NCBI RefSeq assembly: GCF_044324875.1
Contig: NZ_CP172185.1
From: Escherichia coli
GTDB taxonomy: Bacteria > Pseudomonadota > Gammaproteobacteria > Enterobacterales > Enterobacteriaceae
Reading direction: 5' to 3' (one strand)
Length of the DNA: 64,000 bases
Position numbers and translations under genes: made by a program. Under the pieces are notes generated by a model. The model saw nothing but the letters and a program-made list of their open reading frames with translations, was not told where the DNA came from and did no database searches. Below are positions 1-8,660 of the stretch, piece after piece; positions within the stretch are counted from its first letter, which is position 1; the number at the start of each line of letters is the position of its first letter.

Positions 1-1523
<1,523 letters not shown>

Positions 1524-1786
1524 GAAGGTGAATAAGTGATAGCCCAATCGCCTTTCTGCATTTCATTCACAAAGCGCCAAACCTGAGAAGCACCAGAGCG
1601 AACTGTGCCTGGCTTAGTCTGTGGCTCAAGCTCCTGATACCGGATAAACAACTGCTCTCTTGAGCATCCAGGTTTCACATAGGGAGCGAGCTGCGACCAA
1701 CCAATTGCAACAACCTGTTTGTCTCTGAAGTCGTCGTACAATTTTCCGCCATCACCGCGGATCATCCACATCTTAGTCGCCACAAT
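1524..1786 (-). pseudogene. 5' portion of the IS-interrupted ORF (N-terminus (V/M)ATKMWMIRGDGGKLYDDFRDKQVVAIGW..)
   Basis: Reverse-strand ORF with AGGA about 6 nt upstream of a GTG/ATG start near 1771-1786; protein-like sequence through about codon 85, after which the frame runs into IS-derived sequence. Confidence 0.4.
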
Positions 1787-1893
1787 AATTCCTTCTGAAA
1801 ATACTTCATCGTTATACCGGGACGTGATCATTCCATTCAGCCACCTTATCCAGGGGAAAAACACCGATAAGATGGCTAATCAAAATGTCTGTT

Positions 1894-4800
1894 CTAAACC
1901 TGACGCCTATCAAGACTATTATAAATAGCCTCAATCTCACCTTTCAGGTTATCACCAGAGTAAACCATCGATGTATCGTATCGTTCATATCGCGCTTCCC
2001 GTGTCGCACTAAACCAGTTGAACGATCCCACGCATAGCAAACCATCATCACCAATAACAATTTTGCTATGAACACGGTTTACCAGCTTTGTAGCAATACC
2101 CAGCGCATTCAGTTTCTCCAGCGCCGCTTTAAGGTTCTGCTGCTTCTCTTTTCGCTTCTCAAAATCTTTATGTTCAGTGTTATAGCTTCTGTCAGTGACT
2201 ATCGTGACGTTAATTCCACGTGAACACGCCGCAATCATGGAATCAAGAAAACCCGTTTGCTCCAGCTTTTGCCAGGTCAGCCATGGAGAAACTATCGTGA
2301 TGTGTTTATCGGTATTTTCAAACGTCTGATTCAGGAAATTATCATGCTGCTCCACACCATGGAGTGTGTAGATTTTGGTCTCGGAAGTTTTTAAATCCTT
2401 ACGCTCTTTATAATCAAAAGAGAGCGCATTCTTCTCGGACTCAAAGAGATATTTTGCCAGTAATCCCCGCGGAGATGAGGCTGGCTGGATCTCAAACAGG
2501 TCCATATCGCCGAAGACCAGGAAACTGTCCTTCGCACGGGAGACAGCAACGTTCAGCATGCTGTTATCGCTATCAATAAACCCGCCATCCTCATGCTTTG
2601 AATAGACTGGCGAGAATATAACAATCGCTCTTTCCGCCCCCTGAAGAGAATGCACGGTGCCCACGGTGAGCGACGTTTCATTCGCGCCTGTACTGATGCC
2701 TTGTTTACCCAGCGCCTGTTTGATAGTCGATACCTGCGCGCTAAAAGGCGTCACGATACCGACAACTTCATGAAGCGATTTGCCGTAATGCGCTTCAATA
2801 TCTTGCTGGTTATCTGTCAGCCAGGCAGCTATCGTTTCAGCCTCAAGCAAATTATATCGACTTCCGCTACTTGCCAGCGCTCCTTTACCATCAATATGGA
2901 GATAACCCATTGCGGGCATTAAATTGCTCTCTTCACGCCCTCTTTTAGGCAACAACTTACCGTGATAGCAGAGCGTATTACAGTATCCAATAATATTATC
3001 GAAGCACCGGCGGTGTTCATATAGGTACATACCACGAGCCAGTTCGGGATCATATTGATAGCGCGAAGCAAACTGAGCTATTTTCATAACGCTGCCAGAT
3101 GCGGCACTTTTACCAAGGTCTGCGATTGCCGTATATTTCTCGGTAATCTCTTCTTGCGTACTGCCAGACAGAATTTTTTCCGCCAGCATGTTACCGATAT
3201 CAATCGCAGGAGCAATACTCCATATTGGCGGGATCTGCTCCGTATCGCCAATCACTAATGCCTTCTTAGCTAATGCAAACGAGGCAGCAGCCACTTCAGG
3301 AAGCACCTGTCCGGCTTCATCGACAATGAGTAAATCGGCAAAATCATACAAATAACTTTTCTCGAATTTACGTTGTCCTTTGTGCTCACTTATCTGCATA
3401 TTGCCGGGCAGCATATAGCATGTCATCACCACACATGGAATGAGTTTCATTCGACGTTGCCAACGGGCAGTTACTCCTTTAGCGCCTTTTTTCTTCTTCT
3501 CTTCCTGCAGATCATCAATTCTGGCCATATCCATCAGCCAACGACCTTCCCAGTAGTGAGTCGTCAGTAAAAATGCAGGGAAGCGAATCTGCGTATCAGC
3601 CAGTTCATCGGCCTGTGAGAAGCTCAGTTCCTCGTCGCCCTCATACCCTAAATCAAGTGTCAGCCTCTGCCACTCCTGAACCGCCTGCTGTTCTTTAAGA
3701 ACGATTTCATGGGCGGAGTCAATCTGCTTCCGGTATGTTGTTTGCTCGCGTTCAGCGGAATTGAGCAGCCCATCAATATTACGTTCGATAGTTTCAGGAT
3801 CAGACCACTGATTTCCTGCAATCAGCGCGCCTAATTTATCTTCGAGAAACAGCTGTATTTGGTACTGTCGCTTATTGCGAACCGCCGGGAGCCAGGAAAA
3901 TAATGAATAGATCAGTGATTCACCGGCGCGATATTTTTTCCATTCCGTTTTAGCACTCTTCAGTAGAGTAACTTTTTGTTCTTGCCCGGAGAGTAATTTA
4001 TTTAAATTATCGAGATATTGCTCAATGTTATCAGCAATAAGCTCACGCGCCGCCCGAACCTGGCTTAACGTTTGCCATGTTGCGTTCAGTCTTATCAGTT
4101 GCTCGGATTTTGCTGCCAACTGACCATGCAGGAGTTCAATGACCTTTTCAGGGGATGAACACTCTTTTTCAGGAAAGGCTGCCTTAGCCTTCTCCAGATA
4201 AAACAGCAGTGCATCCTCTACATACTCTTTTGACTCAACCTGGTTGAAGAAATCTTCAGTTTGATATTTTTTGGCGGCCTCAGCTTTACGAGTGCTTGAG
4301 GGAAAATAAGCGCCGAAGCTTTTCAGCTCTGGCAACCATCGTCCGGCCATCGCACCGGTGCCCTGGGAAAAATCTTTCCCGAACGCCTCGATAATGTTCG
4401 TGACAGCCTGGTTATTCGTTGAGGTCGCGATAATGACCGGAGGCTCAGATTTTTCGAGAGCCGCTCGGGCCCACTGCGTGGCGATGATAGAAAGCACCAG
4501 CGTGGTTTTTCCGGTTCCCGGAGGGCCATTAACAGCAAGGATATCGCCATGTCTGGCATCCAGAAAATGGCTTAAGGCATCGCGCTGAGCCTTTGCCAGC
4601 GGAAACTTATCTCCGGAGTGTCCAAGCCTGTCGCTGAATTTTGCTCCTGGGGCCAGCAAAGACTCTGCAGCATGAACCTCTCGCGAGGCGAAGCGATTGA
4701 AGAGTGGCACATCCTTCTTGCAAACAAGCAGGTGATCATAAAGCGAAAGGATATGGAAACTGGCACCGCCAGATTGCGCCGTTTTAACAATATAACCGTG

Positions 4801-5409
4801 CTCAGCGAGTTCATATTGCTCAGGATTTTTAATCCAGTCGCCGGCAACGTTCTTCAGCAGCCTCTCTGAATCATCCAGATATTGACGCCAATCCTGCTGC
4901 AAGGCTGCATATCGTGCTTCCCGTTCTTCATCCGTTTCGGCAGTGTTATCAACGCTGTCATCAAACTTGATAGAGAATGACGTATGTGTCGTTTTATATT
5001 TGTCATACTGCTCAATCTCACCAATCGAAAATGCCCCTTTTGGCAAAGGTTCAAGCAGGTCTCTGGGAATGGAGGTCGCTGGCGTCGGGTATAAAAAACC
5101 CTCACGGCTTAGCAAGGCTGGCGTCACTAGCGGGGTAACAATATCAGGCACGCCTGCGGAACGGTCCTTACCATGCTGCAGTAACCGAAAATAAACTTTT
5201 GGGCGCAAGACGACATCGACCGTTTCGACATCGTCTTTTTCTCCCTCAAAAAATTTACTGACAATCGCTTCGTCAAGACGTCCCGCCGCTATCCCATGCC
5301 AGTGAGTGAAATTTTGGGCGTCTTTCCGTTCAAAGCTGCCCTTTCCTGACTCAGCATCCGCAAGCGAGTTGCGCCAGTATGAGGCAAACCCTAAAGCATT
5401 TTCATCCAT
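1894..5409 (-). CDS. Superfamily-1 (Upf1/DNA2-like, COG1112-type) helicase fused to a C-terminal phospholipase-D (HKD) family nuclease domain; candidate defense protein (Mokosh type II-like architecture)
   Basis: 1171-aa ORF. Walker [13 protein letters not shown]; motif [10 protein letters not shown]; motif [14 protein letters not shown]; motif [20 protein letters not shown]-terminal HKD motif [25 protein letters not shown] about 8 nt upstream of ATG. Confidence 0.85.
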
Positions 5410-5734
5410 TACCAGTCCTATGACTCAATGAAATCCATTGATTTATCGAATATAAAATCACCGTATGGATAACTATTGTCCACGTTGAAAGGCTGGCTGC
5501 AATGTTTTGTTCACGCTTCGATACAAATACTCAGGTTATACGGAGTTCAGAAAACGACCATATCATGCTGCATGGCACATAAAAGCTTTATAACCGAAGC
5601 AGCAAAGGATTACCGGCTGCGCAGCACGCCACGAAAGCCCGTGAGCTCTACTGGACAGCGTTCAGTGCAATATTGGAGTCTGTAAGTCCAGAAAATATCA
5701 CTGTCGAAGATGGTTCTGTATGTAGGTGCGCCAG

Positions 5735-6112
5735 CTATTGTTTTGTCCGATGCTTGCGAATAAAAGCATTCAAAATGTCGCCTTCACCATGCATGACAGA
5801 AAAAGAATATTCACATTCTTTCTTTATCAAGATTCCACATAATTCCTTGTGCAAATCTACATTAACTCCCTTTCCTTTCTGTGCTTTCTTCACACCGAGC
5901 TCACATGAACTGATTAATTCAACGTTACAGGGTTTCTTCAAATAATTCACACCATCAATTAAGCCCTGGAGAATGCATCTATTTGCGGTCGTATTACTGT
6001 AGGAGAAGGTCAGATATTTTATTTTCCCTTCACATTCCAGCACAACTTCCGCCGAACCTTCACGTGTTGCAGCATCACAACTTCCTGTTGAATATATTTT
6101 CACCATCTTCAT
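5735..6112 (-). CDS. Small RNase HI-like fold protein with substituted catalytic residues (predicted inactive pseudo-RNase H)
   Basis: 125-aa ORF; by-eye alignment to E. coli RNase HI: VKIYSTGSCD vs VEIFTDGSCL, NTTANRCILQG vs RTTNNRMELMA, VELISSCELG vs VILSTDSQYV, VNVDLHKEL..HGEGD vs KNVDLWQRL..HAGHPENERCD, with the DEDD positions replaced. Strong SD (GGGGAAAGG) upstream. Confidence 0.55.
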   Translation of the reverse strand: MKMVKIYSTGSCDAATREGSAEVVLECEGKIKYLTFSYSNTTANRCILQGLIDGVNYLKKPCNVELISSCELGVKKAQKGKGVNVDLHKELCGILIKKECEYSFSVMHGEGDILNAFIRKHRTKQ

Positions 6113-6180
6113 TTTGTACCTTTCCCCTTACCAAACGAATCATGACATCCTATATCAAAGGCATTCTCGTCAAAACTTTA

Positions 6181-6960
6181 CTATCTCAGTAAATTCTCCC
6201 GATGCCACTCCAGATAACAATACGATTCAACAGAAAACGCCTTTATTTTCTCCGGCAACAAACATTGCTCTTTAACGCTAATATCCAGCTCCTTACTAAT
6301 TAATAAATGCCCATCGTTCTCAAACGAAATCCATCCCTGATCGAATAGAATATCAATATGCGCAGCCAATATAATTCCATTAAAAGGATCAAGACGTTCA
6401 TTTCCATTCTCGCAGGCAGCCCACGGCTTTATATGGCTGGCACGCAGTAAAGGTGCAAAAGTCGTTCCCGTAACAGGGCATGCCGGATACAACATGAGAC
6501 AATTTTTCCGAAAGGTACCTTGCCCCAGCCGTGCCGCAATCAGCTGCTCGCGTACGGTATCTTCAATACTTTTATCCTGCTGAATAGCAAGACAGTCACG
6601 TTGTGCCTGTTCATCTCTATCAGTCGATATTAACGAAAGAACGCGCTGCTCAATTGCACTATCAGAAAGCACACTCAATCGCTGATGAACACGCTGCGCT
6701 GAATGAGAAAGCGCAGCAGGAGCACCCTGCTCGTCACGCCAACCGACACGCACATCACTAAGCCAGGAATCAAAACGGTCACGACTATTTTTCAGACTAT
6801 TGTGAAACTCGCTGGCAGTTTTGCCCGCTCCAAATCGAGGATAAAACAAGGCAAAAGCCTCTTTCCATTTCTGAACACCCAGTCCTGCGGGTGGTTGAGA
6901 GTTACCATACTTCGACAAATACCACGCCACTTCAAGCAAATCGTCTTCAGAGCTATTCAA
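6181..6960 (-). CDS. HNH-family endonuclease (259 aa); apparent TTG start
   Basis: C-terminal HNH motif ..LRASHIKPWAACENGNERLDPFNGIILAAHIDILFDQGW..; frame is open only back to a TAA at 6988-6990 and the first plausible start is TTG at 6958-6960 with AGGA 7 nt upstream; no in-frame ATG near the N-terminus. Confidence 0.7.
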   Translation of the reverse strand: MNSSEDDLLEVAWYLSKYGNSQPPAGLGVQKWKEAFALFYPRFGAGKTASEFHNSLKNSRDRFDSWLSDVRVGWRDEQGAPAALSHSAQRVHQRLSVLSDSAIEQRVLSLISTDRDEQAQRDCLAIQQDKSIEDTVREQLIAARLGQGTFRKNCLMLYPACPVTGTTFAPLLRASHIKPWAACENGNERLDPFNGIILAAHIDILFDQGWISFENDGHLLISKELDISVKEQCLLPEKIKAFSVESYCYLEWHRENLLR

Positions 6961-7030
6961 TATTACGTCCTGTTTTTGCAGAGTAAATTATCACCAGATT
7001 ATATCTGAAAAAATCATTTACTAAACTGAT

Positions 7031-7174
7031 CTGCTTACCTGCAAAACGGTACTGCAAACGCTAATACTCAGAACCATTAAAAGGAACAAGCAGGTGCATA
7101 CCGCTGCCATCGGTCAGTTTGTACTGCTTATCCGTTGGCCTGGCTGTTCTGACCTTGATATCTGTTAACGCCAT
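7031..7174 (-). pseudogene. intB: 5' remnant of a P4-type tyrosine integrase (intB-like) adjacent to leuX; in-frame amber then loss of homology
   Basis: Reverse-strand ATG at 7174 with strong SD (GGGAGGGG) encodes MALTDIKVRTARPTDKQYKLTDGSGMHLLVPFNGSEY-stop-RLQYRFAGKQ, matching the conserved N-terminus of P4-family integrases; TAG at 7061-7063 sits where a conserved Trp is expected; no integrase-like sequence below about 7030. Confidence 0.75.
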
Positions 7175-7324
7175 GCTTATCCCCTCCCTGTTGGTACAAG
7201 CATTATCGAACCGGAAATACCATCATCTGTACCAACATGTGTTGGTAGATGTACGTTGATATCGGTTGACCTTGAGAGAGTTAATATAGCGAAAAAGGTA
7301 GGTAACTGCTGGATTTCAGGCATA

Positions 7325-7350
7325 AAAAAAGACCTCAGTTGAGGTCTATT
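7325..7350 (-). terminator. Rho-independent terminator downstream of leuX
   Basis: Hairpin GACCTCAGTTGAGGTC followed by a T-run on the minus strand immediately 3' of the tRNA. Confidence 0.7.
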
Positions 7351-7360
7351 TACATACTTT

Positions 7361-7445
7361 TGGTGCCGAAGGCCGGACTCGAACCGGCACGTATTTCTAC
7401 GGTTGATTTTGAATCAACTGCGTCTACCGATTTCGCCACTTCGGC
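7361..7445 (-). tRNA. leuX: tRNA-Leu (anticodon CAA)
   Basis: Reverse complement reads GCCGAAGTGGCGAAATCGGTAGACGCAGTTGATTCAAAATCAACCGTAGAAATACGTGCCGGTTCGAGTCCGGCCTTCGGCACCA: cloverleaf with CAA anticodon loop, long variable arm, encoded CCA. Confidence 0.92.
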
Positions 7446-7640
7446 ACTGAAGAGGTATGCGGAAAACGTTGTGGATTATACCTGTCGCACGCCACCATGC
7501 AAGCGCCAGCTTGCTCGCACCTCGCTAAGTGCTGAAATTTTCAGCATTGCATACAGCGATGTGTAACCTTTGTCACACTCCAGGCACCCCGCCCTGCCAT
7601 GCTCTACACTTCCCAGACAACACCAGAGAAGGACTAAAAA

Positions 7641-8660
7641 ATGTCGATGATAAAAAGCTATGCCGCAAAAGAAGCGGGCGGCGAACTGGAACTTTATGAG
7701 TACGATCCCGGTGAATTGAAGCCACAAGATGTTGAAGTGCAGGTGGATTACTGCGGGATCTGCCATTCCGATCTGTCGATGATCGACAACGAATGGGGAT
7801 TTTCACAATATCCGCTGGTTGCCGGGCATGAGGTGATTGGGCGCGTGGTGGCGCTCGGGAGCGCCGCGCAGGATAAAGGTTTGCAGGTCGGTCAGCGTGT
7901 CGGGATTGGCTGGACGGCACGCAGCTGCGGGCATTGCGATGCCTGTATTAGCGGTAATCAGATCAACTGCGAGCAAGGTGCGGTGCCAACAATTATGAAT
8001 CGCGGCGGTTTTGCCGAGAAGTTGCGTGCGGACTGGCAATGGGTGATTCCGCTGCCAGAAAATATTGATATCGAGTCTGCCGGGCCGCTGTTGTGCGGCG
8101 GTATCACGGTCTTTAAACCACTGTTGATGCACCATATCACTGCCACCAGCCGCGTTGGGGTAATTGGTATTGGCGGGCTGGGGCATATCGCTATAAAACT
8201 TCTGCACGCAATGGGATGCGAGGTGACAGCCTTTAGTTCGAATCCGGCGAAAGAGCAGGAAGTGCTGGCGATGGGTGCCGATAAAGTGGTGAATAGCCGC
8301 GATCCGCAGGCACTGAGTGCCCTGGCAGGGCAGTTCGATCTCATTATCAACACCGTCAACGTCAGCCTCGACTGGCAGCCTTATTTTGAGGCGCTGACGT
8401 ATGGCGGTAATTTCCACACCGTCGGTGCGGTTCTCACGCCGCTGTCTGTTCCGGCCTTTACGTTAATTGCGGGCGATCGCAGTGTCTCAGGTTCGGCAAC
8501 CGGTACGCCTTATGAGCTGCGTAAGCTGATGCGCTTTGCCGCCCGCAGCAAGGTTGCGCCGACTACCGAACTGTTCCCGATGTCGAAAATTAACGACGCT
8601 ATCCAGCATGTACGCGATGGTAAAGCGCGCTACCGCGTGGTTCTGAAAGCCGACTTCTGA
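7641..8660 (+). CDS. ahr: NADPH-dependent aldehyde reductase (zinc-type alcohol dehydrogenase)
   Basis: 339-aa ORF; Zn-ADH motifs ([26 protein letters not shown]); matches E. coli Ahr/YjgB by recall. Confidence 0.9.

Follow-up and report, generated by a model that had tools for sequence, protein, structure and literature searches.

At one edge of an Escherichia coli genomic island, a gene for an HNH endonuclease with an apparent TTG start codon sits directly behind the remains of an integrase. This raises the question as to whether the gene is genuine, what drives its expression, and what its product might do. The stretch of DNA analysed here (the window) is 64,000 nucleotides (nt) long, and its positions 1-7445 form the edge of the E. 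coli tRNA-Leu(CAA) leuX island. ARAGORN places the tRNA gene, which is the attachment site of the island, at 7361..7445, and the core genes ahr, yjgR, lptG, lptF and pepA lie beyond it. Reading from the tRNA along the minus strand, which carries the tRNA gene, the spacer behind it and the genes listed next, the order is the integrase remnant, the HNH gene, an RNase H-like gene, the gene for MkoC, and an Mrr_cat/DUF8426 restriction endonuclease (REase) gene that harbors an IS110 element. The leuX locus has been described as E. coli defence hotspot #37 (PMC12707154), and the island examined here resembles others at this hotspot, whose defence cargo includes type I R-M, DISARM and Mokosh. Some of this picture was already known: RefSeq contains the HNH gene with its TTG start, and leuX, a hotspot that has been studied extensively, typically harbors decayed integrases. 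The modestly new part is the N-terminal domain of the protein, which belongs to an undescribed family of putative sensor domains.

We began with the reading frame itself. The HNH gene spans 6181..6960 and encodes 259 amino acids (aa); in the list of open reading frames, its TTG initiation codon lies at 6960-6958 and its stop at 6181. RefSeq/PGAP annotates a coding sequence with identical 780-nt coordinates as WP_001088808.1, "HNH endonuclease." A preliminary description, made from the DNA letters and their translations, had assigned the same function, and this is borne out by the sole Pfam match in the protein, HNH_2 (PF13391; E value of 4.3e-12; residues 161-214, full model 1-66). It had also singled out the TTG as the start on account of a good Shine-Dalgarno sequence and an upstream stop that closes the frame. 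Both can be read from the sequence, with AGGA at 6968..6971, 7 nt 5' of the TTG, and an in-frame TAA at 6988..6990, 30 nt 5' of it. The first in-frame ATG occurs only at about codon 164, and the alternative in-frame starts at codon 8 (TTG) and codon 11 (GTG) both lack a Shine-Dalgarno sequence.

Comparison with homologs settles the N-terminal extent of the protein. Twenty-two full-length homologs (54-94% identity) align from residue 1 onward, with conserved residues from E10 on. The codon aligned with the TTG is an ATG, in the same frame, in the homologs from Salmonella, Yersinia, Pantoea and locus L018, which share 55-65% identity with the HNH protein. The TTG itself is kept within a closer clade that comprises two further E. 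coli loci (L002 and L010), a locus from another genus (L012) and a mobile island (L015); orthologs that keep the TTG have diverged from the window at synonymous sites to a dS of 0.44 and of ~1.2 (1.25). The Shine-Dalgarno sequence is AGGAG in the L012 ortholog and AGGA in the L015 ortholog. The preliminary description had allowed that homologs might start with an ATG in a different frame, implying a sequencing error in the window. Because the homologous ATGs fall at the same codon and in the same frame, we rejected such an error at the start codon. Across the gene, dN/dS is 0.10 for codons 2-80 and 0.14 for codons 81-259 in the L012 ortholog, and 0.08 and 0.10, respectively, in the L015 ortholog. 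These similarly low values in both segments indicate that the N-terminal part is translated and under selection. Two near-identical E. coli alleles yield dN/dS values of 0.08-0.33, a range that depends on a handful of substitutions. The HNH region is present in 140 of 5,426 complete E. coli genomes. Taken together, these data show that the HNH gene is a genuine, stand-alone gene under selection in the E. coli leuX defence island, with translation beginning at the TTG at 6960. In L012, the frame is open 5' of the 89%-identical ortholog (3236-3268), and gene callers add 10-11 codons to reach an ATG or a GTG; the conserved TTG with its AGGAG is the likelier start there.

The same data bear on whether the gene is a defence gene at all. 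HNH domains are common among homing endonucleases, and a non-ATG start beside degraded mobile-element DNA might suggest a homing-type HNH endonuclease that acts selfishly, or else a pseudogene in decay whose start is spurious. However, dN/dS is ~0.1 across the open reading frame, the catalytic residues are invariant, the position of the start codon is conserved, and the gene has no intron or intein context and is always found among defence genes. We rejected both possibilities on these selection and context data, and we regard them as extremely improbable.

We next turned to the sequence between the gene and the tRNA. Megablast, alignment and translation identify positions 7031..7174 as the 48 N-terminal (arm-binding) codons of a P4-type tyrosine integrase. 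From its ATG at 7174 to ~7031 the remnant is colinear with the intact leuX integrase (MALTDIKVRTA...GKQ), and megablast similarity to intact integrases ends at 7032. The remnant translates as MALTDIKVRTARPTDKQYKLTDGSGMHLLVPFNGSEY*RLQYRFAGKQ, and the matching part of the intact integrase reads MALTDIKVRTAKPMDKQYKLTDGSGMHLLVHPNGSKYWRLQYRYDGKQ; the difference at codon 38 (7063-7061) is a TGG-to-TAG nonsense mutation. PGAP labels the remnant "DUF4102 domain-containing protein, incomplete," and no single open frame joins the arm-binding N terminus to a C-terminal catalytic domain, as expected of a pseudogene remnant. As with other degraded P4-type integrases at tRNA-anchored islands, an arm-type integrase adjoins leuX at the island edge. 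The case described here differs in that the integrase is reduced to 48 codons with a nonsense codon among them, so that the island can no longer be mobilised by its own integrase. Between the remnant and the tRNA, the tRNA-integrase spacer (7175..7360), which would hold the integrase promoter, has been retained and is colinear with the spacer before an intact integrase in locus L011.

The remnant varies among carriers. About 76 of the 140 genomes have the stub seen in the window, and about 64 (e.g., CREC-544) have a shorter stub in which a further 49-nt deletion has removed the integrase ribosome-binding site, ATG and 13 codons and has left the HNH gene intact. Among the matches listed, no E. 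coli genome has an intact integrase directly before the HNH gene, and the two stub classes cover all 140 carriers. Locus L011, from E. coli 2018-11-3CC (6027-8288), carries an intact leuX integrase that is 92% identical to the stub over their shared part. It is followed after 205 nt by an SBD-HNH REase that binds phosphorothioated DNA, and then by more HNH genes, one of which is interrupted by IS1.

The gap of about 70 bp that had been described between the integrase-like codons and the TTG is confirmed, with 70 nt (6961..7030) separating the two. This segment is conserved along with the HNH gene in L010, L012 and L015 and is absent from intact integrase genes. In L012, where leuX of another genus holds the same block of four genes, it aligns behind a different and more decayed integrase remnant. 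In L015, a mobile island rich in toxin-antitoxin genes, it aligns next to a divergently transcribed neighbor, with no adjacent integrase. Judged by this conservation, the 70 nt belong to the nuclease gene. They contain a TATAAT box resembling a -10 element at 7003-6998, with a weak -35-like TTTAGT 16 nt further up, and the upstream block conserved among the HNH orthologs keeps (T/C)ATAAT with such a weak hexamer 15-16 nt before it. A consensus promoter scan upstream of the gene made no call, because the -35 element matches at only 3 of 6 positions, and the -10 box was found through conservation alone. We infer that the 70 nt probably act as a promoter, and that the HNH gene would thus bring its own expression signals.

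These observations speak to a model that builds on the preliminary description: an older integrated element gave way to an incoming cassette, the integrase promoter was kept, and the nuclease is now transcribed from it. The part of this model that holds is the retention of the tRNA-integrase spacer; the 70 nt before the TTG turned out to be the nuclease gene's own. In its favor, the spacer and the first 48 integrase codons are kept and point the same way as the nuclease gene, a weak terminator-like hairpin (7105-7089) is all that intervenes, and the same cassette is found in L012 behind a different integrase remnant, so cassette and integrase have separate histories. However, the gene carries its conserved 70-nt region with the -10 box even where an integrase is absent, and the HNH gene therefore does not need the integrase promoter. 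Moreover, ~64 genomes have lost the 5' end of the integrase with no damage to the nuclease gene, and the junction is accounted for just as well by simple decay or deletion, in situ, of the integrase that belonged to the island as by replacement of older cargo. Overall, we consider transcription from a retained integrase promoter after replacement to be unlikely. The adjoining fragment is best explained as the decayed P4-type integrase of the island, with no role in the nuclease.

On its other side, the HNH gene is followed by a block of defence-related genes, which raises the possibility that it is one component of a larger system. Next in order is a gene for a 125-aa RNase HI-like protein (5735..6112), which matches the NCBIfam RNase HI model below its cutoff (E value of 2e-11) and lacks the catalytic carboxylates. 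Aligned with E. coli RNase HI, it carries T in place of D10, I in place of E48 and, by eye, C in place of D70, and it thus appears to have lost catalytic activity. It is followed by MkoC, the 1,171-aa helicase-PLD defence protein of Mokosh type II (1894..5409), which matches the PADLOC MkoC model over its full length (E value of 0, 1,688 bits). Last comes the Mrr_cat/DUF8426 "PDC-S02" REase gene (1-234 and 1513-1765, with flanks that overlap by 2 bp), split by a 1,278-bp IS110-family element (235..1512) whose transposase lies at 340-1320 (NCBIfam, E value of 6e-76). The REase gene is whole (990 nt) in strain GN06156. The RNase HI-like protein is narrowly distributed (11 clusters, in Enterobacterales) and in Pantoea tagorei occurs on its own; within this Mokosh II variant, it may serve as a hybrid-binding accessory.

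The HNH protein could in principle belong to an extended Mokosh type II operon together with the inactive RNase H-like protein and MkoC. The HNH, RNase H-like, MkoC and Mrr-type REase genes are colinear and co-oriented both in E. coli and in a second genus (89% protein identity), and the RNase H-like start lies only 68 nt past the HNH stop. Nevertheless, homologs with 55-81% identity occur in five other contexts that lack the RNase H-like and MkoC genes, and co-occurrence with MkoC is not conserved across the HNH homologs. Conversely, the RNase H-like/MkoC/REase trio is found without the HNH gene in Klebsiella-type loci, and the PADLOC model detects Mokosh type II as a single-gene system. As each occurs without the other, we rejected an obligatory partnership, and membership in an extended operon of this kind seems very unlikely to us. 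The HNH gene thus forms a single-gene cassette of its own.

The other settings of the HNH homologs are varied. In Yersinia intermedia and another enterobacterial genus (L005, L006 and L018-L020), the homolog is the last gene, 33-47 nt past the DISARM gene drmC, at the edge of the leuX island nearest the integrase, which is intact and on which it converges. The Salmonella homolog lies inside an ICE, and the L015 homolog lies in the toxin-antitoxin-rich mobile island mentioned above. In Pantoea (L008, 6362-8783, and L009), the homolog begins within 30 nt after the genes for a 337-aa protein of unknown function and a 198-aa SAM-dependent methyltransferase, whose stop and start overlap, and the three lie beside Mrr and a type I R-M system. 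This trio looks like a three-gene operon. It counts against a stand-alone reading and hints at more complex systems in some lineages. Eco57I-like methyltransferases lie near the DISARM-linked homologs, and likewise near some known enzymes of 224-283 aa that pair an N-terminal sensor with a C-terminal HNH domain.

The protein falls into two parts. Residues 113-259 (6181..6624) comprise linker helices and an HNH (beta-beta-alpha-metal) nuclease domain. A profile of the family aligns residues 80-259, linker included, with residues 127-307 of VcaM4I (E value of 8e-42), the only solved structure that was matched. VcaM4I is an EVE-HNH enzyme that cuts DNA containing 5mC or 5hmC; it dimerises via its HNH domains, is auto-inhibited by a linker helix, and has the catalytic residues H224, N241 and D250, and its isolated HNH domain is toxic (PMC7897488). 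These catalytic residues align with H176, N194 and D203 of the HNH protein, which are invariant in 23 homologs. In sequence, the nuclease half is closest to the phosphorothioate-dependent SBD-HNH enzymes (ScoMcrA-type; Pfam DNA-SBD_ScoMcrA PF26340 plus HNH_2; NCBIfam NF045808), with 58% identity by hhalign over residues 113-259 only. PADLOC HNH and REase models also match the nuclease, and a PHROGs search of the protein returned nothing beyond weak matches of unknown function to this half. By these sequence comparisons, the nuclease half comes from the same lineage as VcaM4I and the SBD-HNH enzymes, with its catalytic residues intact.

The likeness to these enzymes extends to the overall layout and stops at the front domain. 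The HNH protein is similar in size to known enzymes of 224-283 aa that combine an N-terminal sensor with a C-terminal HNH domain, and it follows the same layout logic. Like VcaM4I (PDB 6YEX; the TspA15I/VcaM4I/CmeDI group), it is a single chain with an N-terminal sensor (putative here), a helical linker and a C-terminal HNH domain. The N terminus of VcaM4I, however, is an EVE/PUA beta-barrel that reads 5mC and 5hmC, whereas that of the HNH protein is a five-helix domain with no solved relative. The HNH protein likewise lacks the sulphur-binding domain of the SBD-HNH enzymes, and NF045808 matches it with 17.3 bits against a cutoff of 180, over residues 172-235 only. An SBD-HNH enzyme fills the same slot after the leuX integrase in E. 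coli 2018-11-3CC, so that one slot accommodates a single nuclease lineage with alternative front domains. A full-length AlphaFold2 (AF2) model was weak (mean pLDDT of 68, and below 50 over HNH core residues 146-200), and a Foldseek search of the PDB with this model returned VcaM4I alone, with a poor TM-score. With the HNH core so poorly modeled, proposals of dimerisation and auto-inhibition draw on homology to VcaM4I.

The front domain itself, residues 1-112 (6625..6960), is a helical, uncharacterised, putative sensor or reader. It has no match in Pfam, NCBIfam or PADLOC, and no relationship was detected to known readers (EVE/PUA, SRA, SBD, winged helix or DUF3427). The HNH protein contains none of the established modules for reading modified DNA (PUA/EVE/SRA/YTH, SBD, winged helix, DUF3427 or MrcB_N). 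It is not an EVE-HNH enzyme, as Pfam finds no EVE domain and the N-terminal model is all-helical; nor does it have the winged-helix, DpnI_C-like reader of the wH-HNH 6mA-dependent REases. Two more distant relationships, to a divergent sulphur-binding domain and to the N-terminal domain of a 297- to 316-aa HNH_2 group, were rejected on negative hhalign results. When modeled on its own from a 74-sequence alignment, the domain is predicted with confidence to fold into five helices (pLDDT of 81.7, pTM of 0.72), and Foldseek against AFDB50 retrieves only members of the same family, named HNH, McrA, McrB or restriction endonuclease. Neither the RefSeq accessions nor any account of the domain turned up in literature searches.

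Despite the absence of a Pfam entry or a solved relative, the domain is conserved, well predicted and confined to restriction-like proteins. Its profile matches 277 representative proteins at E values of ≤1e-3, and 189 at ≤1e-10, that range from ~70 to 939 aa; they amount to at least 277 clusters at 50% identity, spread over Proteobacteria, Bacteroidota and Cyanobacteria. Among 85 full-length matches, Pfam (E value of ≤1e-3) identifies as partner domains HNH (PF01844) in 27, NOV_C in 12, AAA_5 in 8, HNH_2 in 7, HATPase_c_3 in 2, and EVE and DpnI_C in 1 each, and PADLOC finds the modules REase_II, PDC-S02, PD-T4-1 and PDC-M26A in partner regions. The domain thus defines a widespread, undescribed family that is fused elsewhere to HNH nucleases, NOV_C-type nucleases and McrB-like AAA_5 GTPases, a distribution that would be expected of a sensor module for type IV restriction. 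As no relationship to a known reader is detectable, any ligand is proposed purely from the fusion partners. With this in mind, we tentatively suggest, at somewhat less than even odds, that residues 1-112 represent a new and widespread sensor family for restriction-type defence, which reads a DNA modification or some other mark of foreign DNA beyond the reach of the known readers (PUA/EVE/SRA/YTH, SBD, winged helix and DUF3427) and has been shuffled onto HNH, HNH_2, NOV_C and McrB-type effectors.

What, then, might the HNH protein do? We propose, with a probability of roughly 0.6, that it is a type IV-like restriction nuclease that works on its own and carries a sensor domain of uncharacterised type. 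Its nuclease domain is homologous to those of proven modification-dependent enzymes (VcaM4I and SBD-HNH), as befits a type IV enzyme. No cognate methyltransferase lies beside the gene in the window or in L001, where it is flanked by the integrase stub on one side and the RNase H-like gene on the other; the exception is the Pantoea homolog, which follows the small SAM methyltransferase. By analogy with VcaM4I, the protein would dimerise through its HNH domains, and the linker would keep the nuclease inactive. The N-terminal domain would then recognise foreign DNA by one of its features, for which a modified base or backbone with no host counterpart is the likeliest candidate, and recognition would free the nuclease to cut nearby. 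Since the hosts are Dam+ and E. coli is also Dcm+, Dam and Dcm methylation are presumably excluded as the recognised mark. The weak TTG start may hold down the level of a potentially toxic nuclease.

The sensor could instead respond to a cue other than modification, such as a phage protein, free DNA ends, single-stranded DNA or a DNA structure, and thereby switch on the HNH domain, as happens in Shedu-like or abortive-infection nucleases. Against this, the main partners of the domain (HNH, HNH_2, NOV_C and McrB-type AAA_5 with McrB_lid) make up the classic type IV effector set, the nuclease half is closest to enzymes of proven modification dependence, and the equivalent slot of the 2018-11-3CC island holds an SBD-HNH enzyme. 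We consider a cue of this kind unlikely and favor recognition of a modification.

Should the N-terminal domain indeed read a DNA modification, the readers known from type IV restriction would gain a new family, and the domain could provide a reagent with which to map a modified base. It would also improve the annotation of several hundred proteins now labeled HNH endonuclease, McrA or McrB that lack a known specificity. The leuX locus, for its part, illustrates the swapping of single-gene restriction cassettes, each with its own expression signals, at the integrase-proximal edge of an island.

The family also includes fusions with a link to the island described here. In three proteins (P0133, P0140 and P0151), the N-terminal domain is joined in one polypeptide to a PDC-S02/DUF8426 N-terminal module, the same module that is found in the neighboring REase of the island. 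In one protein, the domain is joined to a PD-T4-1-like region.
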